Shown piece by piece: positions 3,564-62,906 of a DNA stretch of 64,000 bases. Origin of the DNA: Chloroflexia bacterium (GTDB lineage: Bacteria; Chloroflexota; Chloroflexia; Thermomicrobiales; CADCWN01); the NCBI GenBank assembly GCA_046328475.1, contig JAXLWN010000007.1:20001-84000 (forward strand), written 5' to 3'. The position numbers and the translations under genes are program-made. Every line of letters begins with the position of its first letter. Position 1 is the stretch's first letter. Below the pieces are notes generated by a model. It saw nothing but the letters and a program-made list of their open reading frames with translations. It searched no databases and was not told the origin of the DNA.

Positions 3564-3894
3564 ATGCGCTATTTCGTGCTGGCACTCGAAACCGGAGACG
3601 CCCTGAGCGACGAGGGGCTGCCGGTGGCCTGGGCAACCTGCCCCGACCTCCCCGGCGCTGTACGAGGAAGCTCCCACCGCCGACGAGGCGCTGCAACAGC
3701 TGCGTGCTCTCGCGCACACATCATCGCCGAGCACATCGTGCGCGAGGATCCCGCTCGATCCGGCGATCATCGACACAAATATGCCGCCACCCAACGCGTC
3801 CGACCCTGACACGCTCACCATCGCCATAACCGACGAGGAGATCGAAGCCGTCCGCGCCCTGCCGCTGCTGACGATCGAGCAGCCGGAACCGTAA
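3564..3894 (+). pseudogene. HicB/UPF0150-like antitoxin remnant split over two reading frames
   Basis: MRYFVLALETGD..GLPVAWATCPDLPG resembles the HicB-family N-terminal motif (..PDLPGC..). The expected continuation (EAPTADEALQQLRALA / IIAEHIVRE / IPLDPAIIDTN..IEQPEP*) alternates between the 3564 frame and a second frame that ends at TAA 3892-3894. This implies at least 2 frameshifts. The assignment is weak and motif-level only. Confidence 0.35.
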
Positions 3895-4055
3895 CGAGTG
3901 CGGGAGTGCTGAGTGCTGAGTGCTGAGTAAGTCGAGTCAATACCGTGGTGATAGAGGGGCGGCGAAATGCTCGCCGTCTTCTATCACCAGCACCGTTCGT
4001 ACTTCTATCACGGGAGACACTCAGCACTCAGCACTCAGCACTCCGCACTCGTTAC
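3891..4055. repeat. 38-nt inverted repeat built from (GTGCTGA)3 heptamer arrays around a 90-bp core with its own hairpin
   Basis: The left arm gtaacgagtgcgggagtgctgagtgctgagtgctgagt (3891-3928) and the right arm actcagcactcagcactcagcactccgcactcgttac (4019-4055) are reverse complements apart from one extra G. The inner hairpin runs 3948-3987. Confidence 0.9.
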
Positions 4056-5083
4056 GCTGGCACGTAGAGGCGCGGTGCTTCGACGTAGTCGTCCATGTCT
4101 TCGCGCATGTAGATGAAGGTCGCGCCCTCCATGTTGGTGGCGGCGGAGGGGTTGCCCGCGCGGTCGAGCGCGATGATGTTCATGCGGCTGACCCACGGGC
4201 CACCAAGCGATTTCAGGTCGTTCATCGATTCGAGCAGCGCGGCTTCCAGCGTCATCCCCATCTTCATGTAGAGGACGACGCTGTGCGCGGTGGCGCAGCG
4301 CATCGCCATCTCGCCGTGCCCGGTGCAGGCCGCCGCGCCGTAGCGGTTGTCGGCATAGTTCCCGGCCGCGATGATCGGGGAGTCGCCGAGCCGACCCGGG
4401 TACTTCCACGACCAGCCGCTCGTGCTGACGCCGCAGGCGATGTTGCCATCCTTGTCCTGCGCGATGAAGTTGACCGTGCCGGTCGGGCGCTCCGGATCGG
4501 CCGCGCGCCGCGAGAGTTCGGTCATCTTCTCCATGAACAGCGCTTCGCCGGGAGAGTACTCCGTGTCGCGGCGCAGCCCCTTCTCCCAGATCGCCTTCGC
4601 CTCCGGCGTCAGCAGGTCGCGCTCGGGAAAGCCCTGGTCGCGCGCGAAGCGGTCGGCACCCGCGCCCACGATCAGGACGTGGGGCAGCTCCTCCATCACC
4701 TTGCGCGCCACCTCGATCGGGTGCTCGATCCCGTGGATCGCGCCGACGCAGCCCGCCGCCAGCGTGTTGCCATCCATCAGCGAGGCGTCCAGTTCGACCT
4801 CGCCCAGCAGATTCGGCAGCCCCGAATAACCGACGCTGTGATCCTCCGGGTTGCTCTCCACCGGCTTGATCCCGGCCACCACCGCGTCGAGCGCGCTGCC
4901 ACCCTGGCGCAGCACCTCCACCGCCTGCTTGATACCGACCCGCCCGTTACTACTCGCGACGACGATCACCGCAGCCCTCCCCACAGATCCAATTCCCACA
5001 ATCGTGCGCGTTGCGCCGACCACGCGCATTCTACCCGATGCGAAGAGCTGGCGAATGTCAATACAGTGTCGCATGAACCTCAA
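4052..5083 (-). CDS. Asparaginase-2 family Ntn hydrolase (glycosylasparaginase / isoaspartyl peptidase-like)
   Basis: The motifs TGTVNFIAQDKDGNIACGVSTSG and PGRLGDSPIIAAGNYADNRYGAAACTGHGE match the autoprocessing Thr and active-site regions of the family. The true start may be the internal Met at 5029 (MRVVGATR..). Confidence 0.85.
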   Translation of the reverse strand: MRFMRHCIDIRQLFASGRMRVVGATRTIVGIGSVGRAAVIVVASSNGRVGIKQAVEVLRQGGSALDAVVAGIKPVESNPEDHSVGYSGLPNLLGEVELDASLMDGNTLAAGCVGAIHGIEHPIEVARKVMEELPHVLIVGAGADRFARDQGFPERDLLTPEAKAIWEKGLRRDTEYSPGEALFMEKMTELSRRAADPERPTGTVNFIAQDKDGNIACGVSTSGWSWKYPGRLGDSPIIAAGNYADNRYGAAACTGHGEMAMRCATAHSVVLYMKMGMTLEAALLESMNDLKSLGGPWVSRMNIIALDRAGNPSAATNMEGATFIYMREDMDDYVEAPRLYVPA

Positions 5084-5133
5084 ATAATCTTTGAGGAATC
5101 GCCTACAGCCAGAGGCAGGTTACGCCAATCACG

Positions 5134-6090
5134 TCACCTTCCGCCGCGCGCCAGCACGACGACCCCACCGACGACCAGCGCCGCGCCGAGGAGTTGGACC
5201 GGGGCGAGGTATTGGTCGAGGATGAGCGCGGCGAAGATAATCGAGAGGGCCGGTTCGATGGTGGCGGCGATGGCGACGTTGCCGGCCGGGAGGCGGCTGA
5301 GCGCGACCGTGTAGAGGGTGAGCGGCAGCAGCGTCACCAGGACGCCGACGGCGAGCGCGATGCGCAGCAAGGTCCAGGCGTCGGGGAGCATGGGGAGGCC
5401 GATGAATGCGGGCGCGCTGCCGGCCGGGGTGGCGAAGAGTTGCAGCGGGATCAGGCCGAGGCAGCCGATACTCAAGGTGTAAAAGAGGACGGTTGTGAAA
5501 TGGTAGTGGCGCAGCAGGGGGCGCGAGAAGAGAGCGTAATAGGCGTAGGTGGCCGCCGAGACGACGCCGAGCAGCACGCCGAGCAGGCTGAATTGGCCGC
5601 TGCGCCAGGGCGCGACGACGACGAAGGTGCCGAGCAGGCAGAGACACAAGGCCAGCAGCTTGCGCCGCGTCAGCGCCTCGCCGAACCAGCGCGCCGAGGC
5701 GAGCGTGACGAACGCCGGGAAGAGGTAGAGCAGGGCGGTGCCGACCGGCACGCTGTTCAGCTGGTAGGTGTAGATCAGCGCCGGATAGAAGATGGTGATG
5801 TAGACGAAGCCGAGCAGTGCCAGTTGCGGCAGGTGGTGACGCGCCACGCGCAGGCCGTCGCGCCGCGCCAGCAGCAGGTAGAGCCCGAGCAGCGCGGCGG
5901 CGGTGAGCCCGCGCACCAGCACCACCGTCAGCGGGCTGATCGCGGCGTTCTCCAGCACCAGCGCGAAGACGATCCCGGTGATCGACCAGAAGGTGACGGC
6001 CGCGAAGACGAGCAGATAGGTCGCCAGGGGCGCGCTTTCGTGATCGCGAACCGGGGCCAGCGGGGCGGCTTCGCTCGTCGCCACCGTCAC
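5134..6090 (-). CDS. EamA/DMT-superfamily transporter (about 10 TM helices)
   Basis: The protein is hydrophobic throughout with the duplicated 5-TM EamA-like pattern. The GTG start overlaps the upstream gene's stop by 4 nt (GTGA). Confidence 0.8.
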   Translation of the reverse strand: MTVATSEAAPLAPVRDHESAPLATYLLVFAAVTFWSITGIVFALVLENAAISPLTVVLVRGLTAAALLGLYLLLARRDGLRVARHHLPQLALLGFVYITIFYPALIYTYQLNSVPVGTALLYLFPAFVTLASARWFGEALTRRKLLALCLCLLGTFVVVAPWRSGQFSLLGVLLGVVSAATYAYYALFSRPLLRHYHFTTVLFYTLSIGCLGLIPLQLFATPAGSAPAFIGLPMLPDAWTLLRIALAVGVLVTLLPLTLYTVALSRLPAGNVAIAATIEPALSIIFAALILDQYLAPVQLLGAALVVGGVVVLARGGR

Positions 6091-7080
6091 AGCTCGGCGC
6101 GCTGGCCGCGCCCGGTCGCCTCGGCGCGCTCCACGGCGAAGCGGGCGACGGCGATATCCTGCACGGCGTTGCCGACCGACTTGAAGAAGGTGATCTGCTC
6201 CGCGCCGGTGCGCCCCGGCTTGTCGCCGCTGGCGATCTGCCCCAGTTCGGTCTCGATGTGGGCGCGGTCGATCAGCCCGGCATTCAGCGGCTTGACCAGG
6301 TCGCCCGCCTCGGCCAACGCCGCCGCTACCTCGTCCACGACGACGTAGGCGCGCACGACGGTCGCGGGCGGCACCTCCTGCATCGCCGGGGTGTAGGCCC
6401 CGACCGCGTTGATGTGTGCGCCGGGCTTAAGGTCGGCGTCGTCGAACAGCGGCTCGGTCGCATTCGTCGCGGTGCAGATGATGTCGGCCTCCCTGGTCGC
6501 GGCGCGCAGGTCATCGGCCACGCTCGCCCGCGCGCCAAGTTCGGGCAATTCGGCCCGCAGGCGCTCCACCAGCCCCTCGGCGCGAGCGCGCGTGCGCGAG
6601 GTGATCAGGATGCGCTCGATGCCGGGTCGGGCGGTGGCGACGGCCCAGATCTGCGTGAAGGCCTGCGCCCCCGCGCCGATGCTGAGGAGCGTCTTCGAGT
6701 CCTCGCGTGCCAGCAACTCGGTCGCCTTGCCCGAGACCGCGCCGGTGCGGAGCGCGGTGAGGAAGGTGCCGTCGAGGATGGCGAGTGGCTTGCCCGTCTC
6801 GGCGTCGATCACCCCGACAATCGCCATGATCGTCGGCAGGCCGCGTTCGCGGTTGCAGGGAAAAGACGGAAACGATCTTCATGCCGAGGCCGCCCACGGC
6901 CGGAACGGCGGCGGGCATGAAGAGGGTGACGCCGCCCAGCCAAGCCATGTTGTGCAGCGGCGGCGGAAGCGGCGACTGCGCCCGCCCCGCCGAAAGCTCG
7001 GCGAACGCCACGCCCATCAGCCGGATCGCCTCTTTCATCGGGACCAGTGCGCGCACATCGGCGGCGGAGAGGATGAGCAT
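6087..7080 (-). pseudogene. Ornithine cyclodeaminase / mu-crystallin family gene interrupted by a 1-nt frameshift
   Basis: The N-terminal 70 aa (MLILSAADVRALVPMKEAIRLM..GMKIVSVF) are in the 7080 frame. The remainder (..MAIVGVIDAETGKPLAILDGTFLTALRTGAVSG..) is in the 6827 frame. Removing one T/A from the run at 6858-6865 (gggaaaag) restores VFPCNRERGLPTIMAIVGV. Confidence 0.85.
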
Positions 7081-7108
7081 CGGGGTACCTCGCTATCGTT
7101 AACGTCGA

Positions 7109-7140
7109 TTCGTGCGTTCGTGCGTTCGTGCGTTCGTGCG
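7109..7140. repeat. Tandem octamer array (TTCGTGCG)4
   Basis: Read directly, just upstream of the OCD-like gene start. Confidence 0.9.
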
Positions 7141-7290
7141 TTGGTGGGGGTGGCGGATTGAGTGCGGCGGTTTGGGTGCATCGGCGGTTGAAACCGCGCC
7201 TGAGGGCGACTGCGGTCGCCACGAAATCGCCCTGCGGCGGTTAGGTCCCAACTTCGAGGTGTGGCTCAACCCGCCCGTGCCAACCGCACC

Positions 7291-7327
7291 CGTTCGCCCG
7301 TTCGCCCTTCACCCTTCACCCTTCTCC
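7291..7327. repeat. Short tandem array: (GTTCGCCC)2 then (CTTCACC)2 CTTCTCC
   Basis: Read directly. It overlaps the 3' end of the HTH-like remnant. Confidence 0.8.
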
Positions 7328-7720
7328 GCCCGCGCCTCACCGAGCGACGAGCGGAAGCGGGCGAGGATTTGCGGCCAGGGGGGTGGGTCGAGGGTGGCGG
7401 TCGCCTCCAGTTCGCGCAATTCACCGGCGTGCCTGTCGCGCTGGTGCCGCCAGCCCTCGGAGAGGTAGCGCACGGTCTTGGGGTTGTGGCCCGCGAGTGC
7501 GGTATGCTCGGTGCGGATGGCGCTCTCCAGCGTGCGCCGCCGCCCGCGCAGATAGACTTTGCGATAGAACCTCCGCCAGCCAGCGGTGCTGATCGAGAAG
7601 CGCCGCGCGATTGCCCGATAGCCGCTCGTCGCCCTCGGCGATGGCGGCGCGCAACCGCCGCTCGAAATCGGCCAGGATGGTGACGCGCTTGAGCGATTGC
7701 GTACTGTTCCACGAATGCAC
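7309..7720 (-). pseudogene. Small HTH-type DNA-binding protein remnant (frameshifted)
   Basis: MHSWNSTQSLKRVTILADFERRLRAAIAEGDERL (frame of 7720) continues as YRAIARRFSISTAGWRRFYRKVYLRGRRRTLESAIRTEHTALAGHNPKTVRYLSEGW.. in the 7309..7770 frame. The GYRAIARRFSIS stretch looks like a helix-turn-helix. The family was not identified. Confidence 0.35.
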
Positions 7721-8190: not shown

Positions 8191-8217
8191 CCGGCAGAAA
8201 TTATCGGGACGAATGCA

Positions 8218-8316
8218 GAATTGAGAATTGAGAATTGAGAAAGGGCGGGTGGGTAAGCGCACGACCTGGCCTGCCGCCGACCCATTTCTACATTCTACAT
8301 TCTCAATTCTCAATTC
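8218..8316. repeat. Inverted heptamer arrays (GAATTGA)3 ... (TTCTACA)2(TCTCAAT)2 around a ~60-bp core
   Basis: gaattgagaattgagaattga (8218-8238) is complementary to tctcaattctcaattc (8301-8316). Confidence 0.85.
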
Positions 8317-8319: not shown

Positions 8320-8928
8320 TCATACCACATACTTCTCGACGATTGGCTCCCCTTCGGCGAACCGGGTGGGACGCAGGGCGTGGATGCCGAGGGTTGTCGA
8401 TTTGCCGTCGAGGATGTTCTCGGAGAGCAGCAGGCCGGTGGCGGGGCTGTGCTGGAAGCCGTGGCCGCTGAAGCCGGTGGCGCAGGAGAAGCCGCGCGGC
8501 TCCGGCAACGCGCCGATCAGGCCGTGCGCGTCGGGCGACATCGTGTAGAAGCCGGACCAGCCGCCGACGACCCGCGCGCTGGCGAAGGTCGGCACGCGGC
8601 GATAGGCGAGGTCGGCGCTGTGCTCGGCCCAACCCGGATCGAGGTGCTTGTCGAGGCCGCTCAGCCCCTCCTCGTCGAGGCCGAGCCGCTCGCGCGCCTC
8701 CAGGAAATAGGGGAGGCTGAGCTGCGTCATCTGCACGTTGACGGCGGTGGAACATTGCTGCCGGAAGCCGCCCGCGCCGTCGCCCGACGCCCCTTGCGCG
8801 ATGCGATTGCGCTCCAGCACTACCCCGTCGGTGCAGCCGCGCTGCGCCAGGTGATAGGCGATGCTGGTGCCGACGGCACCCGCGCCGATCACGACGACCT
8901 CGGCGCGGCGCGGAATGATCTCGGGCAT
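8320..8928 (-). CDS. FAD-dependent oxidoreductase (DAO / sarcosine-oxidase-beta-like), apparently internally deleted (202 aa)
   Basis: The N-terminal Rossmann motif VVVIGAGAVGTSIAYHLAQRG..ASGDGAGGFR is joined after ~90 aa directly to the C-terminal region GGWSGFYTMSPDAHGLIGALP..ATGFSGHGFQHSPATG. Family members are usually ~370-390 aa, so the central substrate domain appears to be missing in-frame. Confidence 0.7.
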   Translation of the reverse strand: MPEIIPRRAEVVVIGAGAVGTSIAYHLAQRGCTDGVVLERNRIAQGASGDGAGGFRQQCSTAVNVQMTQLSLPYFLEARERLGLDEEGLSGLDKHLDPGWAEHSADLAYRRVPTFASARVVGGWSGFYTMSPDAHGLIGALPEPRGFSCATGFSGHGFQHSPATGLLLSENILDGKSTTLGIHALRPTRFAEGEPIVEKYVV

Positions 8929-8951: not shown

Positions 8952-9033
8952 GTAGGGGCGCTTCGCGAAGCGCCCTGCGCCGAGCGGCAACCGCTAGCCA
9001 GAGACACCAGGGCGGTTCACGAACCGCCCCTAC
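8952..9033. repeat. 82-bp composite palindromic element (two GC hairpins; termini GTAGGGGCG...CGCCCCTAC), copy 1
   Basis: gtaggggcgcttcgcgaagcgccctgcg..ggcaaccgctagcc..ccagggcggttcacgaaccgcccctac. By hand alignment, 73/82 positions are identical to 14453..14534. Confidence 0.9.
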
Positions 9034-9051: not shown

Positions 9052-10203
9052 CTAATCCGCTGCCTGCCGCGAGAACCGCGACACCGCGAGGAAGCCGATA
9101 TCGTGGCGCGTCTTGCCGTCGATGGCGAGGTCGGCCAGGATTTCGCCGGTGGTTGGCCCGAACTTGAAGCCACGCCCGGAGAAGCCGCAGCCGATCAGCA
9201 CCTGCGGGTATTCCGGATGGCGGTCGATGATGAAATGATCATCGCGCGAATAGGCTTCCAGGCAGGTGATCCGGCGCAGCTCGGGACCGCAGGAGCCGGG
9301 CAGGTACTTGTCGAGCACTTCGCGCAGCAGGCCGATCTCCTCCTCGCGGATGGAGCGGTCGATGGTTCGCGCGGTGGTCGTCGGACCATCGAGCAATCGG
9401 CTGCGCCCCAGCTTCAGCCCGACCCCTTCGACGCCCGGCATCCCGTAGAAATCCCCCTCCGGCACGTCGAGCAGGAAACCGGGCGCGCCGCTCTCGATTG
9501 ACCAGTGGTCGGGGCGCGTCGGCGCGAAATAGCCGTTGGTGGTGCGGATGACGCGCAGCGGCAGATTGAGGTCGCGCAGCAGTTCGGTGGCCCAGGAGCC
9601 GGTCGTGATGATCAGTTGCGCGCCGGTGTATTCCCCCTGCGCGGTCGTGACCCGCATGCACCATCACCATCCGCTGCCCAGTTGGTGACCTCTGCAGAGT
9701 GCAGGAACGTCGCGCCGAGCCGCGCGGCCACCTCAAGGTGCGCGATCACGCCCCCTTCGGCCAGCACAAAGCCTGCCGTCTGCTCGTAGGCGACGAGCAA
9801 CCCGTCGCCGTTCCAAACGCCTGGGAAACGCTGCGCAGTGCCGCCTCGTCCAGAATCTCCAGAAACCGCCCTGTTGCATCTTCTCGGCGGTGGAGACGAA
9901 GCCGGGGCGATAGTTGATATCGACGATGCGGATCTCACCGGTCATCCAGAGTAGTTGACGACCCCGCGCCTCGGAAATCTCGTCCCATAGCTCGAACGCG
10001 CGCTCCCCGAGCGGCACGTAGCCGTCGTTCTGTACCGACGAGCGGCGAATCAGCCGGTGGTAGCCATGCGACGAACCCTGGTTGTGCCCCGGCCCGAACA
10101 TGTCGATCCCGAGCACCCGCTGCCCGCGCTTCGCCAACTGATACGCCGTCGCGCTCCCCGCCGCGCCCAGCCCGACCACGATCACATCGTAGGAATCGCT
10201 CAC
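9052..10203 (-). pseudogene. Monomeric sarcosine oxidase / N-methyltryptophan oxidase-like FAD enzyme with 2-3 frameshifts
   Basis: The N-terminus (YDVIVVGLGAAGSATAYQLAKRGQRVLGIDMF..GSSHG) is in frame a. The middle (RFPGVWNGDGLLVAYEQTAGFVLAEGGVIAHLEVAARLGATFLHSAEVTNWAADGDG) is in frame b. The C-terminus (MRVTTAQGEYTGAQLIITTGSW..GCGFSGRGFKFGPTTGE) is in frame c. The pieces are colinear with the family. Confidence 0.8.
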
Positions 10204-14452: not shown

Positions 14453-14534
14453 GTAGGGGCGCGTCGTGACGCGCCCTGCGACGTGTGGCAACCGCGAGCC
14501 AGGGAGACCAGGGCGGTTCACGAACCGCCCCTAC
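14453..14534. repeat. 82-bp composite palindromic element, copy 2
   Basis: gtaggggcgcgtcgtgacgcgccctgcg..ggcaaccgcgagcc..ccagggcggttcacgaaccgcccctac. The differences from copy 1 in the first hairpin are one compensatory pair (T-A to G-C) plus one loop base. Confidence 0.9.
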
Positions 14535-15667: not shown

Positions 15668-15685
15668 TGGCTCACTCCGTTCGCA

Positions 15686-15790
15686 GTCGTGAGTCGTGAG
15701 TCGTGAGTCGTGAGAATCTCGCTTGAGGCTAGAGGCAACCAGTGTAGCCGCTAGTTCTGCCAGTCCACTCACGACTCACGACTCACGACT
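15686..15790. repeat. Inverted heptamer arrays (GTCGTGA)4 ... (CTCACGA)3 around a 54-bp core, inside the ABC operon
   Basis: Read directly. It fills the permease-ATPase intergenic gap (15668-15792). Confidence 0.92.
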
Positions 15791-15792
15791 CG

Positions 15793-17609: not shown

Positions 17610-17620
17610 CGTCGCTCCAA

Positions 17621-21871: not shown

Positions 21872-22029
21872 CCGATCCTCCTCACCCGACACGCCCCCAA
21901 GAGCATCCCGCACGCAGGGGCAACGACACCGACAACCCCCAACCGCCCACAATGCGCGAGATAGTATCATCGCCGGGCAACGACGAACAAAAAGGGCGGG
22001 GCAGCACACGCCACCCCGCCCCTCTTCTC

Positions 22030-22057
22030 ACGACTTACGACTTACGACTTACGACTC
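22030..22057. repeat. Tandem heptamer array (ACGACTT)3 ACGACTC just downstream of lon
   Basis: Read directly. AGTCGTA, the reverse complement of the rotated unit TACGACT, recurs at 56674 and 56695. Confidence 0.9.
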
Positions 22058-24649: not shown

Positions 24650-24670
24650 GCTGTCCTGCCTTTCGGTAGC

Positions 24671-24746
24671 CAGTCGTCAGTCGTCAGTCGTCAGTCGTCA
24701 GTAGATACGAAATACACCGACGCACCGACGCACGAATGCACTGACG
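24671..24746. repeat. Tandem arrays (CAGTCGT)4 followed by an octamer array (CACNNACG)4 between hsp20 and lon
   Basis: Read directly. CAGTCGT is the reverse complement of ACGACTG. That unit matches 6 of 7 positions of the unit downstream of lon. Confidence 0.9.
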
Positions 24747-24751
24747 CACTA

Positions 24752-25351: not shown

Positions 25352-25734
25352 GACTTCTTGACAATGCAGATTATAGCTAAGCGGCTACATCTGACTATCA
25401 TTACCCGCTACAACGTGTAGCGAGCAAGAACTATTCCACCAACTTCCAACCAGGGATCGACAGCACCACCGGGACACCAGGGACACGAAGCAGAACGAGT
25501 AAAAATCACAGAGGGCACAGCGTACACCGCGACGAAAAAGAAGCATGAGCAAGGAGCGCAGTTGCCGCCCCTCATTCATGCTTAACTAACGCACGCAGCG
25601 CCCACTCTGTTCTTTGCGGAGAAAAGCGATTTCGTCTCCGCGTCGTGCTCCGCGTCTCCGCGCCTCTGCGGTCTTACTCTCTTCTCTCTTCTCTCCACTC
25701 TCCTCATCCCCTCGTCTTGGCGGTTCAATCCCCG

Positions 25735-27243: not shown

Positions 27244-27327
27244 TCGTCACTCCTCGCTCCTCCGTCGCTCGTACTTCGTCGTTCGTACTTCGTACTTGAC
27301 TCAGCACTCAGCACTCAGCACTTCGCA
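27244..27327. repeat. Twelve consecutive in-register heptamers of mixed sequence (..TACTTCG TCGTTCG TACTTCG TACTTGA CTCAGCA x3 CTTCGCA)
   Basis: Read directly. It combines the units seen at 4021 (TCAGCAC) and 56025 (TACTTCG). Confidence 0.85.
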
Positions 27328-33963: not shown

Positions 33964-33982
33964 TGGGCCTCCGGGGTGTGAA

Positions 33983-34017
33983 GGGAGAGGGGAGAGGGGA
34001 GAGGGGAGAAGGGAGAA
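33983..34017. repeat. Tandem heptamer array (GGGAGAG)3(GGGAGAA)2
   Basis: Read directly, upstream of the VOC-like remnant. Confidence 0.85.
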
Positions 34018-34154
34018 GGATGAGGCGTGGGCTGATGTTGAAAGTGAGTGGAGTTCCGATTGCTCCGCCCGGAGATAAATCTCCGTTATACACGCGCCGG
34101 ATGAATCCGGCTTGGGCGGGGCATGGCGGGCAGGGTTGGCGTGGGGGGTAATCC

Positions 34155-35145: not shown

Positions 35146-35257
35146 CGCCAAGACGCCAAGGAGACGCCAAGGACGCCAAGACGAAGGACGATTTTACCGC
35201 AGAGGACGCAGAGGGCGCAGAGGACGTAGAGACGAGGAGAGAAGAGAGAGGAGAGAT
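35146..35257. repeat. Cluster of short tandem repeats: CGCCAAG-core repeats, then a 9-nt periodic run (ACGCAGAGG GCGCAGAGG ACGTAGAGA CGAGGAGAG..)
   Basis: Read directly, in the divergent panE / DUF4291 intergenic region. Confidence 0.8.
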
Positions 35258-45258: not shown

Positions 45259-45269
45259 GCGACGGGAGA

Positions 45270-46194: not shown

Positions 46195-48941
46195 AACACC
46201 AGCCACGCCTCAACCACCTCATCCCGATAGTTGTGCTTGAGGGTGAAGCCGTGCTGTTTGGCGACGCGCTGCATGCCGGTGTTCTCGGGGAGGATTTCGG
46301 CGGTGATGCGGCGGAGGCCTTCGTCGCGGCCGATCTGGATGAGGCGGCTGAGGAGTTCGGAGCCGAGGCCGAGGCGCTGGTAGCGGTCGTTGACGAGCAG
46401 GGCGAACTCGGCTTCGGGTGCGTCGGTGCCGGGGGTGCGACTGAGGCGGCCGACGGCCATGATCTCGGGCTGGCCGGTCTCGGGGTTGCGGCGCTCGACG
46501 ACCAGGGCCATCTCGCGGGCGTAGTCGATGAAGCACATCCGCACCAGGCGCTCGTGCGAGGTGCGCTGGTGCAGCGTCATCATGTGGAAGTAGCGGTAGT
46601 AGACGCTCCGCTCGGAGAGGTTCTGGTGGAACTGGACCAGCAGGGGCTCGTCCTCGGGGCGGATCGGGCGGATGGTGACCTCCTCGCCGCCACGCGTGGT
46701 CCAGTTGGAGGCGTACTGCGCCGGGTAGGGGTGGATCGCGGAGCGGGGAAGGTCGGACTCGGGGATGGCGGGGTCGTGGAGGACAACGCGCGCATCGAGC
46801 GCGATCAGGCGGTCGGGCGAGGCGAGCAGCGGGTTGATGTCGAGTTCCTTGATCTGCGGCTGCTCGACGATCAGTTGGCTGAAGCGGACCAGCAGGCCCT
46901 CCAGCGCCGCGAGATCCACGGGCGGGCGACCGCGCACGCCCTGGAGGGCGGTCAGGATGCGGGTGCCCTCCATCATGCGCCGGGCCAGGGTGGTGTTGAG
47001 TGGGGGGAGGGCCAGGGCGCGGTCGCGGAAGACCTCCACCAGCTGCCCGCCGGTGCCGAAGAGGAGGACCGGGCCGAACTGCGAGTCGATGCTGCTGCCG
47101 ACGATCAGCTCGTAGCCATCGAGGCGGACCATCGGCTGCACGGTGACACCGGCGAAGTCGGCGGCGGGGACGCCGCGCTGGATGCGCTGGAAGGCCGCGC
47201 GCACGGCGTCGGCATCGGCGAGGTTGAGTTGCACGCCGCCCACATCGGTCTTGTGGGTGATCGTCTTGGAGTAGAGTTTGAGCACCGCCGGGTAGCCGAT
47301 CGCATCCGCCGCCGCGACCGCCCCCTCCTCGTCGGTCGCCACGCGCGTCTCCACGGTCGGGATGCCGTAGGCGGCCAGCAGGGCTTTCGATTCGGGCTCG
47401 GTCAGCAGCGTGCGCCCCTCGGCGCGGATCGCCCGCAACTGCGCCCGCACGTCCGATTCCGCATTCCGCACTCCGAATTCCGCATTCGACAGCGTTGGCG
47501 TCTCGTAGAGGCTGCGGAGGTTGTCGGCGTAGCGCCACATGTAGGCGAAGACGCGCGCGGCGGTGTCGGGGTAGGGGAAGGTGGGGATGCCCGCGCGCGT
47601 CAGGATCGCCTCGCCCGGTGCCACCGCGTCGCCCCCCATGAAGGAGGCGATCAGCGGCTTGTGGATCGAGTGCGCGTAGGGCGCGAGCAGCTCGGCGACG
47701 CGCGTGGGGTCGGTCATCGCCTGCGGCGTCAGCATGATCAGCAGGCCATCGGTCGTCGGGTCCTTCGCGGCGGCGGCGAGCGTCTTGGCGTAGCGGTCGG
47801 GGTCGGCATCGCCGATGATGTCGATCGGGTTGCCGTGGCTCCAGTGTTCGGGCAGCACGCCATCGAGTGCCGCGAGCGTCTCGGGCGCGAGCTCGGCCAG
47901 CGCGCCGCCGTTTTGCAGGAGCGCGTCGGTCGCCAGCACCCCAGGGCCGCCCGCGTTGGTGACCAGCGCCAGGCGCGGGCCGCGCGGGCGGGGCTGCTTG
48001 GCGAGCGCCTCGGCCAGATAGAAGACCTCGGCGATGGTGTTGACGCGCAGCACGCCGACGCGACGGAAGGCGATGTCCAGCACCTCGTCGCTGCCGGTGA
48101 GCGAGCCGGTGTGGGAGGCGGCGGCGTGCGCGGCCTGCGCGGTGCGCCCGCCCTTGATCACGATGATCGGCTTGGTCAGCGCCACCTCGCGCGCGGCGGA
48201 GAGGAAGGCGGTCGCGTCGCCGATCGACTCCATGTAGACGATGATGCTCTGGGTCTTGCGGTCGTTGCCGAAATAGTCGATCAGGTCGCCCCAGCCGACA
48301 TCGAGCATCGAGCCGACCGAGATGAAGGCGCTGAAGCCGACCTCCTCGCGCAGGCTCCAGTCGAGCACGGAGGTGCAGAGCGCGCCGCTCTGGCTGAGGA
48401 AGGCGACGTTGCCGGGGCGGGCGATGGTGGCGGCGAAGGTGGCGTTGAAGCCGCTCGGCGGGGTCATCGCGCCGAGGCAGTTCGGCCCCAGCAGGCGCAT
48501 CCGCCCCTTGCGCGCCTCGGCGAGCACCTGGCGCTCCAGTTCGGCCCCCGCCTCGCCCTGCTCCTTGAAGCCGGCCGAGATGATGATCGCCCCCTTCACC
48601 CCGGCCGCGACGCACTCGGCGACGATCGCGGGCACGGTCGGCGCGGGCGTGGCGATGATCGCGAGATCGACCCGCTCGGGCACCTCGCCGATCGCGGCGT
48701 AGGCCTTGATGCCGAGCACGTAGCGTCGCTTCGGATTGACCGGGAAGACCGCACCGCCGAACGGGCTGGCGACGAGGTTCGCCAGGATCGTGCGCCCGAC
48801 GCTCCTCGGCTCCTCGCTCGCGCCGATCACCGCGACCGCGCGCGGCTTGAAGAGCGCGTCGAGCGGCTGCCGCTCGGCGCGGTAGACATCGTGCGCCGGG
48901 TCGCTGGGTGCGGGCATCTGCGGGCCGGGCTGCTGCGCCAT
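46191..48941 (-). CDS. Pat-type bifunctional protein: ADP-forming acetyl-CoA synthetase-like (CoA-binding, ligase, ATP-grasp) fused to a C-terminal GNAT acetyltransferase
   Basis: CoA-binding region [20 protein letters not shown]; SHTGSLTG; ATP-grasp region [36 protein letters not shown]; C-terminal GNAT region [21 protein letters not shown]. The start was set at MAQQPGPQ (48941). Confidence 0.9.
47454..47488. repeat. Heptamer array (CGATTCC GCATTCC GCACTCC GAATTCC GCATTCG) embedded in the Pat-like CDS
   Basis: Read directly. It is translated on the minus strand as ..[14 protein letters not shown].. in the linker between the ligase and ATP-grasp parts. The same unit forms the intergenic array at 62872. 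Confidence 0.85.
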
Positions 48942-49155
48942 GCTGATCCCTCCATCGGCGTAGCCGGTATCATCGCGCGCGAACGAACGAGCGCCCTCGC
49001 ACAGCTTACAGCACGCCGCGTGCCGCTGGGCGCGCAAAACCGCGCCGCCGGGGTCGCGTTTAAGGCATGGTTGCCGGGCCAACGATTTCCGCTACACTTC
49101 CCCCGGTCCGCTACGGACACTTGCATGTTGGACGCCCACAGCGAGGAAGGATTGC

Positions 49156-53208: not shown

Positions 53209-55450
53209 ATGAAGGATGTGACGGCCTGCGTGATGGAGACCACGCACTGCGCCGTTCTCGAAACTGTCCGTCTGCCAGCCCACTGGGGATCGGTGCGGCG
53301 GTGCGACGGTTGGTGCGCGCTCGCTGGGGCCGAGGCGTGGTGCGCGCTGGTGCTCGCGGTCATGGCTGTCAACCTGTTGCTGATCCTGCCCCAGAAGACG
53401 ATCACGGTGGACGAATTTGTCCACATCCCGGCGGGCTGCGTCGGGCTGACGGTGGGGACTTCCGACTGAACAACGAGCACCCGCCGCTGGTTAAGCTCTG
53501 GGCGGCATTGCCGTTGCTGACGCTCGGCACGAAGTCGCTGCCCGAGCTGCCCGCCGAGAATCCGGGGTAGCGGATCGATGAACACTGCGCGCTTACTTCT
53601 GGAGGAGAACGCGGCGGTTCGGGGCGATCAATTACCTCTGGGCGCGCTAAAGCCGATGATCGCGCTGACCCTGGCGCTGGGGGTGGTGGTCTTCGTCGCG
53701 ACGCGGCGCAACTGGCCGCGCTGGGGGTGCTGGCGGTCGCGCTCTTCAGCCCGGAGCCGACCATGCTGGGGCACGGGCGGATCGTCCACACCGACATCGC
53801 CGCGCTCGCCTATCTCGTCGCCCTGCTGGCGCTCTACGCCTACGCTGCGCGCCCGACCTGGGTCGCGCGGCGCTGCTGGGCGAAGTGGTGGGTGCGGCGT
53901 TCAAGCATGGCGCATTCGCTGGTGGTGCTCGGCCGGTCGTGCGATTGGACTGCTGGCGCTGTGAGCGGCCGCGCCGCGCCGGGAACAGTCGGCGGGCAAT
54001 CGTGGGCAGGCGGCTGTTGCGCTGGTGGCGATCGTCGCGCTCAATGCCGCCTACGAGTTCCGCCACCAGGCCGCTGGAAGCGATCGACCTCGCCTGGATT
54101 CGCGCCGAGCACCCCGCCGAAGCCGGGCGGGTGATCGCCGGGTTCGACGCGCTCTCGCCGGTCGTGCCGCCCTACTATCTACTCGGGGTCTACACCGTCT
54201 TCGGGCACAATGAGGGGGGGCACCAGGCGGCGCTCTTCGACGAGCACAGCCAGCGTGGCTGGTGGTACTACTTCCCGGTCGCGTTCGCCCTGAAGACCGC
54301 GCTCCCCTTCCTGCTCATCACGATCGGCGCGCTCGGCTGGGCGCTCTGGCGCGTCGGCGCGCGACGCGACTGGCGGCTGCTGGCATTCGTCGGCCCCCCG
54401 GCGCTCTACGCCGGGTTCGCGATGACGAGCCAGATCAACATCGGCATCCGCCACATTTTGCCCGTCTTCCCGTTCCTCTTCATCCTCGGTGGCGCGGCGC
54501 TCGACCGCCTCCTGGCGGCGCGGCTCGCGATCCCGTCCATGCTCCGAGCGCGGAAGGGGCGGCGGACGAAGTCGAAAGGAACGCCCCTGCGCCAGTCGCT
54601 CGGGATCGCCATCGTCGCGCTGCTGCTCGGCTGGATGGGGGGCGAGGCGATCCGCGCGCACCCCGATTACCTCGTCTACCTGAACGAGTTGGCGCGCGGG
54701 CCGGGGTGGCAGTATCTCTCCGATTCGAATATCGAGTGGGGCGACGATACGGAGGCGCTGGCGGCGTACTTGCACGCGCAGGGTGAGCACTCCGTGCGCG
54801 CGGCGGTCGCCGGGAGTCGCGATAGTCTCGGCTTCTTCGGCGTCGAATACCTCGACTACTTCGACGCCAAGGCGTCTGATCAGCCGACGCGCTACCTCGC
54901 GATCGGGGCGAGCTTCCTCAATGGCTCGACCGTGCCGCCGACGCTGACCGAGACGCGCCCGGACTATTTCGCCACCTACCGCTACCGCCAGCCGGTCGCG
55001 GTCTTCGGACGGGCGATCTACCTCTATCCCTACCCCGAGACCGAGGCACCGCTGGCGGCGGCGCTCTCGCCGACCACCTACCGCGCCGCGCTCGGCGCAT
55101 CGCGTTTGCCGACGACGCTGCGCCCCGGCGAGACGGTCGGCGTCTGGGTGCAGGTCCGCAACGACAGCACCCAGGCCTGGCCGCCGTCCGATCACGGCGA
55201 GGTCCGCTATCAGATTCGGCTCGGCAATCGCTGGTTCGACACGAGCGGCGCGACACTGGTGCGCGACGATTCCCGCGCGCCGCTCTACCACGCGCTCTAC
55301 CCCGGCGAGCGCACCGACATGCTGCTCACCATCACCGCGCCCGATCAACCGGGCAACTACCTGCTCGACATCGATCTCGCGCAGGAAGGGATCGCCTGGT
55401 TCGGCGAGCACGGGAGCGCACCGATCCGGGTGCCGGTGCGGGTGCGGTGA
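53209..55450 (+). pseudogene. GT39/GT83-type (PMT_2/ArnT-like) glycosyltransferase; the N-terminal third is fragmented by at least 3 frameshifts, the C-terminal 521-aa ORF is intact
   Basis: Pieces lie in different frames: ..LILPQKTITVDEFVHIPAG; GDFRLNNEHPPLVKLWAALPLL; LAVALFSPEPTMLGHGRIVHTDIAALAYLVALLALYAY. The open frame 53885..55450 follows (..WWYYFPVAFALKTALPFLL..) and ends in an Ig-like domain. Confidence 0.7.
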
Positions 55451-55477
55451 TTGCGGATTGCAGATTTCGGATTGAAG
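55436..55477. repeat. Heptamer array (GTGCGGG TGCGGTG ATTGCGG ATTGCAG ATTTCGG ATTGAAG)
   Basis: Read directly. It spans the stop codon of the GT gene (TGA 55448-55450). Confidence 0.8.
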
Positions 55478-55485
55478 GGAACGCG

Positions 55486-55959
55486 ATGGCGATTTTGCTG
55501 CGCGATGTGACGAAGGAGAACTGGCAAGAGTGCGTGCGGCTGAAGCTCGCGCCCGAGCAGGAGCATTTTGTCGCCTCGAATGCTTACTCGATCGCCGAGT
55601 CGAAGTTCATGCCGACCTACATCCCGCAGGCGATCTACCATCGCGCCGACGGAGAGGCCGAGGAGACGATGGTCGGATTCGTGATGTACGGCTTCTATCC
55701 CGATGACGAGCCGCCGTTCGGGCAGCGCCACTGGATCTTCCGCCTGATGATCGATCGGGACCATCAGGGCAAAGGCTACGGGCGGGAGGCGATGCGACAG
55801 GTCCTCGCACGCCTGGAGGCCGATCCTGCCTGTACGAGTGTGCTGATCGGCTACGAGACGGAAAATGTGATCGCCAGCAAGCTCTACGCCGACCTCGGCT
55901 TCCGCGAGATCGGCCCCGCGCCGTGGGGCGAGATGGTTGCCGAGCGCGCGACAAAATGA
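55486..55959 (+). CDS. GNAT family N-acetyltransferase
   Basis: The acetyl-CoA motif region reads FRLMIDRDHQGKGYGREAMRQVL. 157 aa. ATG is at 55486. Confidence 0.85.
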   Translation: MAILLRDVTKENWQECVRLKLAPEQEHFVASNAYSIAESKFMPTYIPQAIYHRADGEAEETMVGFVMYGFYPDDEPPFGQRHWIFRLMIDRDHQGKGYGREAMRQVLARLEADPACTSVLIGYETENVIASKLYADLGFREIGPAPWGEMVAERATK

Positions 55960-55962: not shown

Positions 55963-56038
55963 GGAAGGACGAAGTACGAACGACGAAGTACGAAGTAAGG
56001 CGCTGCCTGAGGTAAGTCTCTGTCTACTTCGTACTTCG
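55963..56038. repeat. Inverted heptamer arrays (CGAAGTA-type x5 ... TACTTCG x2) around a 27-bp core
   Basis: Read directly, between the two GNAT genes. Confidence 0.88.
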
Positions 56039-56058
56039 TCCGCACGAGGAGACGAACC

Positions 56059-56664
56059 ATGCCCACAGCCACCAGGGAAGCAGCGCCGCTCGCGCTCGAT
56101 ATCCAGCCGCTGACGCCCGACCGCTGGAGTGACCTGGAAGCCCTCTTCGGGAAGCAGGGGGCCTATTCCGGCTGCTGGTGCATGTGGTGGCGGCTGGCCG
56201 GGTCGGACTTCGGGAATGCCGGGGCTGCGGGTCGCAAGGCGGCGTTCGCGGGGATTGTCGCCGAGGGGCGGGTGCCGGGACTGCTCGCCTACGCGGATGG
56301 GGTGCCGGTCGGCTGGTGCGCCATCGCGCCGCGCAGCGAATTCCCGCGCTTCGACCGCTCGCGCTACTGGCAGCCGGTGGACGACCGGCCGGTCTGGTCG
56401 CTGAACTGCTTCTACATCGCGCGCGGCCAGCGCGGGCGCGGGATCGCCACTGCATTGCTGAGCGCGGCAATCGCCTTCGCGAAAGAGCGCGGCGCGCGGA
56501 TCGTCGAGGCGTACCCGAAGGATGTTGACGTGAGAGCGTCGGCTTCCTCGATCTATACCGGCACGGTCGGGATATTCCTCGCCGCCGGGTTCGCGGAGAT
56601 CGCACGCCGCCACCCGGAGCGGCCGATCATGCGGCTGGAGGTCGAAGTAACGAGGGACGAGTAA
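56059..56664 (+). CDS. GNAT family N-acetyltransferase
   Basis: The motif A region reads FYIARGQRGRGIATALLSAAIAFAKERGARIVEAYP. The stop codon TAA (56662-56664) lies inside the second GTAACGA repeat unit. Confidence 0.85.
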   Translation: MPTATREAAPLALDIQPLTPDRWSDLEALFGKQGAYSGCWCMWWRLAGSDFGNAGAAGRKAAFAGIVAEGRVPGLLAYADGVPVGWCAIAPRSEFPRFDRSRYWQPVDDRPVWSLNCFYIARGQRGRGIATALLSAAIAFAKERGARIVEAYPKDVDVRASASSIYTGTVGIFLAAGFAEIARRHPERPIMRLEVEVTRDE

Positions 56665-56834
56665 CGAGGGACGAGTCGTACGTCGTACGATGTAAGTCGT
56701 AAGAGGGGCTTACGGATTCTTCGCTATCGCTCGGAATGACACCACCGAGGGCTGTGCCTTGAGCAGGTGTCATTCCGAGCGCAGCGAAGAATCCGTCTCC
56801 CCTCATTACTCGTTACTCGTTACTCGTCACTCCC
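56647..56834. repeat. Nested palindromic element: outer heptamer arrays (GTAACGA/GGGACGA.. vs TACTCGT x3) enclosing a ~40-bp inverted repeat (..acggattcttcgct.tcgctcggaatgacacc / ggtgtcattccgagcgcagcgaagaatccgt..)
   Basis: Read directly. The inner arms are 56703-56743 and 56766-56804, with a 22-nt loop. Nine in-register heptamers lie on the left. Confidence 0.9.
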
Positions 56835-62396: not shown

Positions 62397-62753
62397 ATGC
62401 ATCTCGCCATCTTCAGCGATACGGTCAAGAGCCATTTCTCGGAGGAGCGGCCCGATCAATCGGCGTTGATCCTCTTCGGCAACGCGAAGTTCGACCTGAC
62501 GCGGCAGCCGATCGATCTCTTCGCGAGCCTCAGGGTTTTCAGCATTTTTGGCTCGGCCAGGGTGCTCGTCCCGCCCGGGACGCAGGTGGTCACCGACGGC
62601 GTGGCGATTTTCGGCGCGGCGAAGGTGCGCAGCACCTCGACGGTCGGCCCGGAGGTGCGCATCCGCTACCTCGCGCTCTTCGGCAACGTCGAAGTCATCG
62701 AAGCCGAGGACGAGCCGGTGGCAGTCCATGCGGGGCGGGTGCTCCCGTACTGA
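62397..62753 (+). CDS. Small beta-rich hypothetical protein, possibly LiaF-C/DUF2154-like
   Basis: MHLAIFSDTVKSHF..LILFGNAKFDLT..VFSIFGSARVLVPPGTQVVTDGVAIFGAAKV.. shows a repeated FG..(K/R)V pattern as in LiaF-like C-terminal domains. The assignment is weak. ATG is at 62397. Confidence 0.45.
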   Translation: MHLAIFSDTVKSHFSEERPDQSALILFGNAKFDLTRQPIDLFASLRVFSIFGSARVLVPPGTQVVTDGVAIFGAAKVRSTSTVGPEVRIRYLALFGNVEVIEAEDEPVAVHAGRVLPY

Positions 62754-62766
62754 CGGGGGCGGATTC

Positions 62767-62790
62767 GAAGTTCAAAGTTCAAAGTTCAAA
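62767..62790. repeat. Tandem heptamer array GAAGTTC (AAAGTTC)2 AAA
   Basis: Read directly, 14 nt after the stop at 62753. Confidence 0.85.
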
Positions 62791-62871
62791 ACACGGGCCA
62801 CCGATTGTGGCGCGGCATACTGGTCTGCGCCCTGCGTGCTATCATAACGAGCGAGGGGCGGTGTGTGGGGG

Positions 62872-62906
62872 ATATTCCGCATTCCGCATTCGTCAGTCAC
62901 CATTCG
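62872..62906. repeat. Heptamer array ATATTCC GCATTCC GCATTCG TCAGTCA CCATTCG upstream of sucC
   Basis: Read directly. It shares the GCATTCC/GCATTCG units with the in-CDS array at 47454. Confidence 0.85.

Follow-up and report, generated by a model that had tools for sequence, protein, structure and literature searches.

The DNA analysed here, referred to as the window, is a stretch of 64,000 nucleotides from a Chloroflexia bacterium (contig JAXLWN010000007.1, positions 20,001 to 84,000 of the forward strand, assembly GCA_046328475.1). Its flanking solute-binding protein and Lon protease place the source among uncultured members of the order Thermomicrobiales, in agreement with the Chloroflexota origin considered in a first-pass annotation made from the letters alone. 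Gene boundaries in the window are punctuated by short tandem arrays of seven-nucleotide units, and at several of them an array and its reverse complement flank a short core, forming an inverted pair that can fold into a long hairpin. Heptanucleotide repeats have been known in cyanobacteria since 1990 and have no accepted function or origin. At the junctions described below, related genomes keep a stem built of heptamers although its unit has been exchanged in both arms, which is the signature of a maintained structure and not of a maintained sequence. Similar stems were found around genes of the PF05635 family in several phyla.

Hairpins with tandem-heptamer stems

Six loci of the window, denoted L1 to L6, contain inverted pairs, and all six were recovered where the first-pass annotation had placed them, with complementary arms and long predicted stems. 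Two of them lie in an ATP-binding cassette (ABC) sugar operon on the minus strand, in which the order is GntR, solute-binding protein, L4, permease 1, permease 2, L3, and ATPase. The stop codon of the solute-binding protein gene (17737-19179) marks the start of L4 (17610..17736, minus strand), which in the sense direction consists of (GACGAAT)x4.1 at 17708-17736, a 58-nt core, and (ATTCGTC)x4.4 at 17619-17649. The arms of L4 are 100% complementary over 28 nt and its sense fold is predicted at -72 kcal/mol; 12 nt separate its end from the ATG (17609) of permease 1, and the GGAG is left free. L3 (15668..15792, minus strand) occupies the junction between the stop codon of permease 2 (15793-16629) and the ribosome-binding site (RBS) and ATG (15667) of the ATPase gene (14567-15667). 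It starts 1 nt past the permease 2 stop, ends approximately 23 nt ahead of the ATPase ATG, and contains, in sense order, (GAGTCGT)x3.6 at 15767-15791, a 52-nt core, and (CTCACGA)x4.3 at 15685-15714, with 100% complementarity over 24 nt and a predicted fold of about -66 kcal/mol.

Three other hairpins are L1, L2, and L6. L1 (3895..4051) fills the entire gap between two convergent genes, from the stop of the plus-strand open reading frame (ORF) at 3607-3894 to the stop of the minus-strand asparaginase gene at 4052-5083. Its arms, (GAGTGCT)x3.6 at 3904-3928 and (CACTCAG)x4.7 at 4018-4050, are 100% complementary over 26 nt and enclose an 89-nt core with a nested hairpin, and the RNA fold is predicted at -102.5/-100.9 kcal/mol (z about -12). 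L6 (56640..56840) carries 5' arrays at 56646-56701, of period 14 (AGTAACGAGGGACG) followed by GTCGTAC, and a 3' array (CTCGTTA)x4.4 at 56802-56832, the arms being 88% complementary over 25 nt and the predicted fold -118/-121 kcal/mol. The 5' arrays overlap the final 19 nt and the TAA stop of the GNAT gene at 56059-56664, and the distal end adjoins the stop (56827) of a convergent minus-strand gene. L2 (8211..8316) has arms of 24 nt with 92% complementarity, built from (GAGAATT)x3.6 at 8217-8241 and from TTCTACA/ATTCTCA arrays at 8286-8316; it adjoins the stop (8320) of a minus-strand ORF with a DAO domain, and its fold has a z of about -5.

L5 (55960..56058, plus strand) fills the gap between the stop of one GNAT gene (55447-55959) and the RBS and ATG (56059) of the GNAT gene that ends in L6. 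Its 5' arm (GAAGTAC/GAACGAC, 55964-55997) has periods of 7 and 14, its 3' arm is (TACTTCG)x2.1 at 56025-56039, and the arms match over approximately 14-17 bp. With a predicted fold of -36 kcal/mol and a z of about -2.5, it is the weakest of the six, for which the predicted energies range from -36 to -121 kcal/mol and the z values of L1, L3, L4, and L6 from -6 to -14.

Convergent heptamer arrays able to form a stem-loop are also present in the HSP20-lon spacer (24650..24751, minus strand), which in sense order carries an 8-mer array (GTGCGTCG, 24715-24749) and (ACTGACG)x4.6 at 24671-24702. Here the pairing consists of 7-bp blocks with one G.U pair each and 1-nt bulges between them, and the sense fold is predicted at -38.6 versus -34.5 kcal/mol for the antisense. 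The cores of the window elements measure 27-126 nt, and in each hairpin a long stem formed by terminal inverted repeats would loop out the sequence between them.

The L6 core (56703-56800) itself contains a near-perfect hairpin of approximately 40 bp (GGGGCTTACGGATTCTTCGCT...TGTCATTCCGAGCG...AGCGAAGAATCCGTCTCCCC) nested within the heptamer stem. Its CATTCCGAGCG motif has one further occurrence, in the related locus L016.

Frequency, placement, and reproducibility of the arrays

Tandem Repeats Finder returned 26 rows of period 7 in the window, which collapse into approximately 17 loci, together with a few 8- and 9-mers. Thirteen perfect arrays of at least three copies have period 7, compared to two of period 4, one each of periods 5 and 8, and none of any other period. 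In 100 Markov-1 simulations of the window, the expectation for period 7 was 0.0 and the maximum 0, and the remaining periods were at chance. The estimate of about 17 loci in the first-pass annotation, and its view that they are non-random and specific to period 7, therefore held. The 13 perfect arrays are long simple repeats in the sense of Mrazek 2007 (a unit of 5-11 nt at above-chance length), and the 64 kb contain at least 13 unit classes.

Gene positions were taken from open frames with high GC content at third codon positions (GC3) and from the gene calls of a near-identical contig, L001. The arrays had been described as intergenic and adjoining stop codons, and none of the 13 perfect arrays lies within a real coding sequence, even though high-GC3 open frames cover up to 80% of the window. 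One array overlaps the 3' end of a gene by 16 nt, in addition to the overlap of L6 with 19 nt and a stop codon. Two imperfect arrays, at 47445-47487 and 55449-55474, are intragenic.

The contig L001 belongs to an independent metagenome-assembled genome (GCA_046328415.1) and matches the window with 99.79% identity over 21.4 kb, with 45 differing positions. All eight arrays common to the two are identical, and none of the 45 differences falls inside an array. This comparison, one of the checks suggested in the first-pass annotation, rules out an assembly artefact, because an independent assembly has the same arrays. Since no difference falls in them, the arrays are also not hypervariable on the time scale of strains; copy number did not vary between these close relatives in what is, with one strain pair, a weak test. 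Contingency or phase-variation loci were rejected for now, as the arrays are invariant between two strains with 45 differences and lie outside promoters and reading frames.

A scan of the whole window with Rfam at gathering thresholds gave no matches, rRNA included, and no tRNA or tmRNA genes were found in it; the elements thus belong to no catalogued RNA family. A metagenome scan with the binding protein as query returned a single irrelevant locus at 25% identity.

Persistence of the stems at orthologous junctions

The distribution of the arrays was surveyed in 1.47 Mb of loci around Lon orthologues. Period-7 arrays were present in close Thermomicrobiales relatives, and one array was found in approximately 1.3 Mb of Anaerolineae and other Chloroflexota.

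Two junctions of the ABC sugar operon and one upstream of lon could be followed across relatives. The first is the spacer between the binding protein and permease 1, which in the window (L4) reads (GACGAAT)4 ... (ATTCGTC)4. In L087/L088, at 82% nucleotide identity, it reads (GACGATT)3 ... (AATCGTC)4, with an alignable core and one ancestral ATTCGTC unit left beside it; alignment of L4 with L087 shows that GACGAAT has become GACGATT on both arms. In L002 (80% identity) the arms are of a GAGAAGT type and the core is unrelated. A degenerate GACGAAA/GACGAAG hairpin is found in L089 (75% identity), and a plain GC-rich hairpin in L005 (75-82% identity). In the second spacer, between permease 2 and the ATPase, three lineages open with the stop codon followed by CGAGT and then continue with GAGTCGT in the window, CAGTCGG in L002, and CAGTAGT in L088; the spacer is 8 nt long in L089 and contains no arrays in L005. 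The third junction is the HSP20-lon spacer. There, the heptamer hairpin of L006 is a different one (GTCCGTA/TACGGAC), in which all mismatches are G.U in the sense RNA, and the more distant relatives L008-L011 and L032 have no element.

A hairpin is thus retained at the same junction across 75-87% nucleotide identity with the unit altered on both arms. The comparison of orthologous spacers, also suggested in the first-pass annotation, shows that position, paired type, and architecture are kept between relatives while the unit sequence varies. Because unit substitutions are fixed in all copies of both arms, they argue for concerted evolution with compensation and not for transposition, and the unrelated cores at different loci agree with concerted evolution in place. 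Collectively, these alignments point to a stem that is a long-lived resident of its junction, evolving in concert in situ, and not to a consensus element spread by copy-and-paste.

A separate difference was noted in the same operon. L088 has a GC-rich, highly structured insert of approximately 250 nt between permease 1 and permease 2 (5052-5300; the same sequence in L087 from 3644), and the corresponding gap in the window is 14 nt with no such insert.

Strand, polarity, and termination

The fold predicted for the gene-sense RNA was more stable than that of the antisense at six of nine co-directional spacers, with two showing the opposite and one being neutral. The largest differences were at L006 (-74.6 sense versus -53.5 kcal/mol antisense, with seven G.U pairs) and L087 (-59.1 versus -47.1 kcal/mol, with five), and mismatches tend toward G.U in the gene-sense RNA. 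As a sign of action at the RNA level this asymmetry is suggestive, not decisive.

A second regularity concerns base composition. In 27 of 27 hairpins (seven from the window, six from relatives, and 14 from the PF05635 cassettes described below), the first arm has more G than C. A G-rich first arm makes sense only for one strand read 5' to 3'. Its use as a marker of the transcribed strand was rejected, because an inverted repeat reads identically on both strands and its polarity cannot assign one. The rule nevertheless constrains any proposed mechanism. Under one tentative idea, an arm rich in C and poor in G would offer Rho an exposed loading site if it were made first, and made second it would immediately be captured by its partner. 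The possibility that the first arm provides stop codons in three frames was rejected, as only 12 of 27 first arms carry a stop in each of the frames, a number largely explained because first arms are poor in C.

The hairpins do not resemble intrinsic terminators, as none of the six loci has a T-run after its hairpin. Scans of 60 kb for sigma-70 promoters and intrinsic terminators gave counts at the level of shuffled sequence and no match that explains the hairpins; terminator-like matches do not coincide with the stems, and one weak match lies inside the L1 core.

PF05635 genes enclosed by similar stems

In one of the relatives, a hairpin of this type contains a gene. The permease 2/ATPase spacer of L087/L088 has a stem of (CAGTAGT)4-5 ... 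(ACTACTG)4 that encloses a gene for a 130-aa PF05635 protein (region 6140-6648 in L088), a family annotated as "23S rRNA intervening sequence protein" and as an Avd-like four-helix-bundle protein. A second locus from another member of the Thermomicrobiales, L100 (3365-3905), has a PF05635 gene between transporter genes, with the same repeat unit as L088 and a protein 62% identical to it. The arrays around the two genes, GAGTAGCCAGTAGTCAGTAGTC ... GACTACTGACTACTG, are thus found in differing gene contexts. In L092 (1462-1925), a PF05635 gene follows a NurA gene, and its arms (TAGTTGA/CGACTAA) pair with U.G included.

The sample was enlarged by a tblastn search of PLSDB plasmids for PF05635, which gave 32 records, mostly from Nostocales, of which 18 regions were fetched. 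The loci sampled were L088, L100, L092, the plasmid loci L102-L119, and 38120-38939 of L120, covering Chloroflexota, Cyanobacteriota, Bacteroidota, Pseudomonadota (a 23S rRNA intervening sequence, IVS), and Gemmatimonadota. Inverted period-7 pairs with units specific to each cassette were found in Calothrix, Nostoc (twice), Picosynechococcus, Anabaena, Stanieria, Geminocystis, and Riemerella (Bacteroidota), and a genuine 23S rRNA IVS of Azospirillum has inverted period-7 arms around its PF05635 ORF. The remaining regions comprise two with irregular purine/pyrimidine inverted arrays, partial pairs in Trichormus and Scytonema, four with arrays in the same orientation, and one with none. In total, short-period flanking arrays accompany approximately 19 of 21 sampled PF05635 genes, mostly with period 7, and approximately 15 of these are inverted pairs. 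The genes are placed tightly inside unrelated operons, such as cas10-cmr3, cas6-cas4, ribonucleotide reductase (RNR) subunit genes, and an ABC transporter.

Period-7 scans of 50-kb stretches from three plasmids served as a control. In Anabaena sp. 90 pANA02 (L120), seven of the eight period-7 arrays in 50 kb bracket a four-helix-bundle gene, and the eighth (4072-4090) is located within a diversity-generating retroelement, between its avd and reverse-transcriptase genes; all eight thus adjoin a gene of the Avd family. Of the six arrays in the scanned part of a Nostoc edaphicum plasmid, three lie around PF05635 and RNR-beta genes. A strict scan of the Riemerella plasmid returned no arrays because the flanking arrays there are imperfect.

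This association of heptamer stems with PF05635 genes appears to be new. A literature search, in which the full-text coverage of journals was incomplete, found no description of heptamer stems around PF05635 genes in general or of heptamer hairpins in Thermomicrobiales. The occurrence of these genes in the same stems in five phyla ties heptamer repeats to the 23S rRNA IVSs that are excised by RNase III.

Two further observations concern the family. First, most of 4,001 PF05635 homologues lie on very short contigs (approximately 0.5-3 kb), as expected if flanking arrays break short-read assemblies. Second, the idea that the window cores are decayed PF05635 cassettes, or share a mobile core, was rejected: 11 cores compared with three cassettes and with each other scored like shuffled sequence.

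Additional arrays and repeats in the window

The lon gene is followed by a solo array, (AAGTCGT)x3.9 (22027..22057, minus strand), which is placed between the lon stop (22064) and a canonical intrinsic terminator (approximately 21986-22024) and adjoins both; the terminator is separate from and downstream of the array. The two arrays flanking lon, this one and 24671-24702 upstream, are complementary at six of seven positions per unit in the window and perfectly so in L007 (12-48 and 2588-2618). The lon mRNA could thus base-pair with itself across 2.6 kb, its 5' untranslated region with its 3' one. The NAGTCGT unit family recurs in the window, L006, and L007.

Two abutting solo arrays (27263..27322), TCGTACT-type at 27263-27297 and (ACTCAGC)x3.4 at 27299-27322, lie between divergent genes. 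Positions 27269-27293 are the exact reverse complement of 55969-55993 in the L5 arm over 25 nt, including a non-periodic variant unit, and 27299-27322 is identical to 4019-4042 in the L1 arm over 24 nt. These matches bear out the earlier description of the units as locus-specific with some recurrences. Since these orphan arrays copy the L5 and L1 arms, the arrays are not strictly private to their loci, and some exchange or duplication has taken place. RNA from 27263-27322 could pair in trans with the L5 and L1 arms.

A further region (7109..7324) contains the 8-mer (TTCGTGCG)x4.8 at 7109-7146 and CCCGTTCG/CCCTTCA arrays at 7287-7324; its arms have no clear complementarity, and 7100-7330 folds no better than shuffled sequence (z about -1). 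Solo arrays at 62764..62891, (TTCAAAG)x3.9 at 62764-62790 and (ATTCCGC)x2.6 at 62874-62891, occupy the spacer upstream of a plus-strand gene starting near 62922. The unit of the second is shared with the imperfect period-7/21 array TCCGCAT (47445..47487), which lies within a minus-strand gene for a 963-aa protein (46191-49082). Three arrays are of skewed composition: a pyrimidine-rich period-7/14 array (25672..25702), purine-rich on the minus sense strand, between the stop of a UbiA-family gene and the HSP20 promoter region; an intergenic purine-rich period-7 array, (GGGAGAG/GAAGGGA)x5-6, at 33979..34025; and a purine-rich run of 9-, 8-, and 7-mers (CGCCAAGGA, CGCAGAGGA, AGAGAGA) at 35146..35256 in a divergent intergenic region.

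Elements of another repeat family, approximately 82 nt long and unrelated to the heptamer arrays, occur at 8952-9033, 14453-14534, and 46066-46194. Each consists of two palindromic halves (GTAGGGGCGC..GCGCCCTG ... CAGGGCGG..CCGCCCCTAC), the 28-nt right half is identical in two copies, and the motif is found several times in L006 and also in L092; one copy in L006 encloses a heptamer hairpin (7048-7170). The family looks like a repetitive extragenic palindrome (REP) or a miniature inverted-repeat transposable element (MITE). The copy at 8952-9033 lies between two of three consecutive minus-strand ORFs (8320-8928, 9052-9657, and 9733-10203) that all match the DAO (FAD-dependent oxidoreductase) family and look like a split or decaying gene; L001 has the same three pieces. 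Finally, 42139-44210 and 45178-45908 form a diverged direct duplication, with many exact matches of 18-36 nt at two offsets, approximately 3,039 nt (the 42139-42189 blocks) and approximately 1,698 nt (43624-44210). GC3-based calling gave few confident genes at 43.4-46.2 kb.

Interpretation and alternative explanations

The elements are lineage-specific intergenic hairpins with tandem-heptamer stems. They belong to the same general class as the heptanucleotide repeats and short tandemly repeated repetitive (STRR) sequences and are paired as in Xanthomonas. They also look like a version, without the ORF, of the stem-loop found around PF05635 genes in 23S rRNA IVSs and in operon spacers. Under the explanation that we favour, each element would reside in its own spacer, its units would arise and homogenise locally, probably through replication slippage, and the complementarity of its arms would be kept by selection on pairing or by hairpin-templated correction. 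The unit may thus drift, and the stem would remain at its gene junction from one species to the next. In the transcript, a near-perfect double-stranded stem of 20-38 bp would start at or within a few bases of the stop codon, end just ahead of the next RBS or of the stop of a convergent gene, and loop out the sequence between the arms. Such a stem could stabilise the message upstream of it by blocking its 3' end, as behind the binding-protein gene in the ABC operon, or alternatively serve as an RNase III-type processing site at which cistrons are separated. We infer this function, that of an ORF-less, IVS-like RNA stem serving as mRNA stabiliser and/or RNase III site between cistrons or at 3' ends, and give it roughly even credence.

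Several observations weigh against this explanation. First, L3 and the permease 2/ATPase spacer of L002 favour the antisense fold and L5 is neutral, and the polarity of the arms could reflect a process at the level of DNA or single-stranded DNA. Second, the perfect arms of L1, L3, and L4, which have no G.U pairs, fit recent homogenisation of DNA as well as they fit selection. Third, arrays can exist unpaired, as several are solo (22030, 27263-27322, 62764, and 33979), and the stem is dispensable, because some relatives have no element at the same junction (an 8-nt spacer in L089, none in L008-L011). Fourth, regarding the likeness to PF05635 cassettes, a tblastn search of the window and of the near-identical contig segment gave no PF05635 homologue, and the window cores have no similarity to these cassettes.

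The main rival explanation is that the arrays are a neutral by-product of mutation: microsatellites of a lineage prone to polymerase slippage, one arm of which was copied by template switching at pre-existing hairpins, without function and located where they are tolerated. In many bacteria, no other long simple repeats are as common as the heptanucleotide ones, which are credited to polymerase slippage in the accounts summarised in PMC4679880 and PMC4692102. The unequal copy numbers of paired arms (3.6 versus 4.7; 3.4 versus 5.6), the existence of solo and of 8- and 9-mer arrays, the absence of elements at the same junction in some relatives, and the perfect stems of L1, L3, and L4 would all be accounted for. 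What such a process would not readily produce is a hairpin that stays at its junction across 75-87% identity while its unit changes on both arms, nor the exact placement from stop codon to RBS with the RBS left free. The polarity of 27 of 27 hairpins, the unchanged copy number between strains, and the excess of G.U pairs on the sense strand at L006 and L087 also speak against it. We regard a purely neutral origin as a serious but somewhat unlikely account.

Non-autonomous mobile elements, either MITE-like or miniature PF05635/IVS cassettes that insert beside stop codons and have the arrays as their terminal inverted repeats, are an unlikely explanation. The 25-nt exact match between 27269-27293 and 55969-55993, which includes a variant unit, indicates a copy event, L088 and L100 have the same arrays around PF05635 genes in different contexts, such genes sit tightly inside unrelated operons, and the vocabulary of units is restricted, with the NAGTCGT family recurring. 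Against mobility, the cores are unrelated to each other and to the PF05635 cassettes, the units are mostly locus-specific, and orthologous arrays descend in place, as the conserved start of stop codon and CGAGT shows; moreover, no target-site duplication or transposase was seen, and the window has no PF05635 gene.

Least probable, and in our view improbable, is that the arrays are putative sites for a nucleic acid-binding protein that reads the 7-nt period, whether a regulator or a PF05635 pentamer of the Avd-like type supplied in trans, with the hairpin being secondary: the strict period with variable sequence, the arrays that accompany Avd-family genes across phyla (eight of eight in 50 kb of pANA02), and the speculation on a heptamer-binding protein in the cyanobacterial literature (bioRxiv 10.1101/2022.06.06.494920) would suit it, but units that differ at each locus argue against a sequence-specific binder, no PF05635 gene lies in the window or the near-identical contig segment, and a simple binding array would not need complementary arms.

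A broader proposal can also be made. Beyond slippage noise, heptamer arrays, STRR sequences included, may be the stems of a widespread cassette system built on Avd-like PF05635 four-helix-bundle proteins, which we consider conceivable though doubtful; it would possibly extend to the heptamer families of Xanthomonas, Bacteroidota, and Beggiatoaceae. In such a system, a G-rich-first inverted heptamer pair would insert at a stop codon and loop itself out of the transcript or rRNA, carrying a PF05635 gene or remaining an ORF-less hairpin as in the window. The PF05635 protein would act on the arrays by binding, generating, or mobilising them, possibly with a reverse transcriptase as its partner, like Avd in diversity-generating retroelements. 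The arrays that flank approximately 19 of 21 sampled PF05635 genes, and the eight arrays of pANA02 that all adjoin an Avd-family gene, speak for this proposal. If this link is true, an old descriptive puzzle about heptamers becomes directly testable. If it fails, the elements remain a clear case of REP-like intercistronic hairpins, produced through an uncommon mutational process in a phylum that has received little study.

Comparison with known repeat systems

The REPs and bacterial interspersed mosaic elements (BIMEs) of enterobacteria, for example in malE-malF and hisJ-hisQ, are palindromes that lie after stop codons, keep 3' exonucleases from degrading the mRNA upstream of them, and bring about differential expression. 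The window elements share with them a stable extragenic palindrome after a stop codon, both between convergent genes (L1, L6) and inside the ABC operon (L3, L4), where one of them directly follows the gene of a solute-binding protein. REPs have a single genome-wide consensus of approximately 35 bp and are mobilised by REP-associated tyrosine transposases (RAYTs, IS200/IS605-like), whereas the window elements have arms and cores that differ by locus, no similarity from core to core, and stems made of tandem heptamers. No RAYT was noticed in the 64-kb window, in which no search aimed at RAYTs was made. An assignment to MITEs was rejected, as the cores are unrelated, the terminal arrays differ by locus, and no target-site duplication is visible outside the arms of the six hairpins.

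The first-pass annotation had likened the arrays to the STRR sequences of heterocystous cyanobacteria, and in period and in short intergenic arrays the likeness is real. The units of STRR1-3 are CCCCAGT, TTGGTCA, and CAACAGT, none of which equals any of the at least 13 unit classes of the window. In the parts of the literature summarised in PMC4679880 and PMC4692102 (Mazel et al. 1990; Mrazek et al. 2007), STRR and heptanucleotide repeats share with the window a period of 7, short arrays, an intergenic bias, and a patchy phylogenetic distribution. STRR sequences consist of few genome-wide units in Nostocales, mostly in single direct arrays, whereas the arrays described here come from Thermomicrobiales, have many units, and often form inverted pairs. 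Nostoc has few inverted heptamer pairs (PMC4692102), and the partner of its heptamer repeats is "yet to be identified" (bioRxiv 10.1101/2022.06.06.494920). More generally, according to the summary of Mrazek et al. 2007 given in PMC4679880, heptanucleotide repeats rank first in abundance among the long simple repeats of most bacterial genomes and are credited to polymerase slippage.

The TAACTGA repeats of Beggiatoaceae, Cyanobacteria, and Bacteroidetes, found as 169 direct sets and one indirect, have been proposed to act post-transcriptionally (MacGregor 2015, PMC4679880). Like the window elements, they are intergenic heptamer arrays (two to six copies) near gene boundaries, often with stop triplets. 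They differ in having one unit in direct repeats just upstream of start codons, compared to inverted pairs after stop codons in the window. Families of four to five tandem heptanucleotides are known in Geobacter metallireducens (PMC2700814), and in the Chloroflexota, Chloroflexus aurantiacus has a species-specific family of 14-nt satellites (PMC6749651).

The 23S rRNA IVS of Coxiella burnetii has a 28-bp stem, an S23p ORF, and two to three tandem copies of GACAGAT, variable in number among strains, at the first of which RNase III cuts (PMC4990558). As in the window, a long stem of terminal inverted repeats loops out an insert, and the tandem heptamers of Coxiella lie at the 5' side of the stem (PMC4990558). 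The IVS sits in rRNA and has a PF05635 ORF, whereas the window elements occupy spacers between protein genes, have unrelated cores, and are accompanied by no PF05635 homologue detectable by tblastn.

The closest precedent is in Xanthomonas, in which each genome has 70-75 convergent inverted pairs of GGGAATC heptamers, and the single or paired type is preserved between species (Rehm et al. 2015, PMC4692102). Like those of the window, they are tandem heptamers in few copies, mostly intergenic, capable of forming a stem-loop, variable in length and sequence, and arranged with the G-rich array first. Compared to them, the window elements possess several distinct features. First, Xanthomonas has one genome-wide unit with a G-run and the potential to form G-quadruplexes, whereas the window has units that differ by locus and hairpin arms with no GGG runs. 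Second, placement from stop codon to RBS and concerted turnover of the unit on two arms are features of the window that are not described for Xanthomonas (PMC4692102). Third, stems of the window's kind are also found around PF05635 genes. Given the Xanthomonas pairs, the earlier view that no described element family accommodates the inverted-pair architecture does not stand. As for a match to a catalogued family, the elements fit the Xanthomonas type of pairing and the class of heptamer repeats, while Rfam has no entry for them and their units differ. Since inverted heptamer pairs are known in Xanthomonas and heptamer repeats are common in bacteria, the window hairpins are not a categorically new type of element; what is new here is that such pairs, with units particular to each locus and evolving in concert, occur in a phylum from which there was no earlier description of them.

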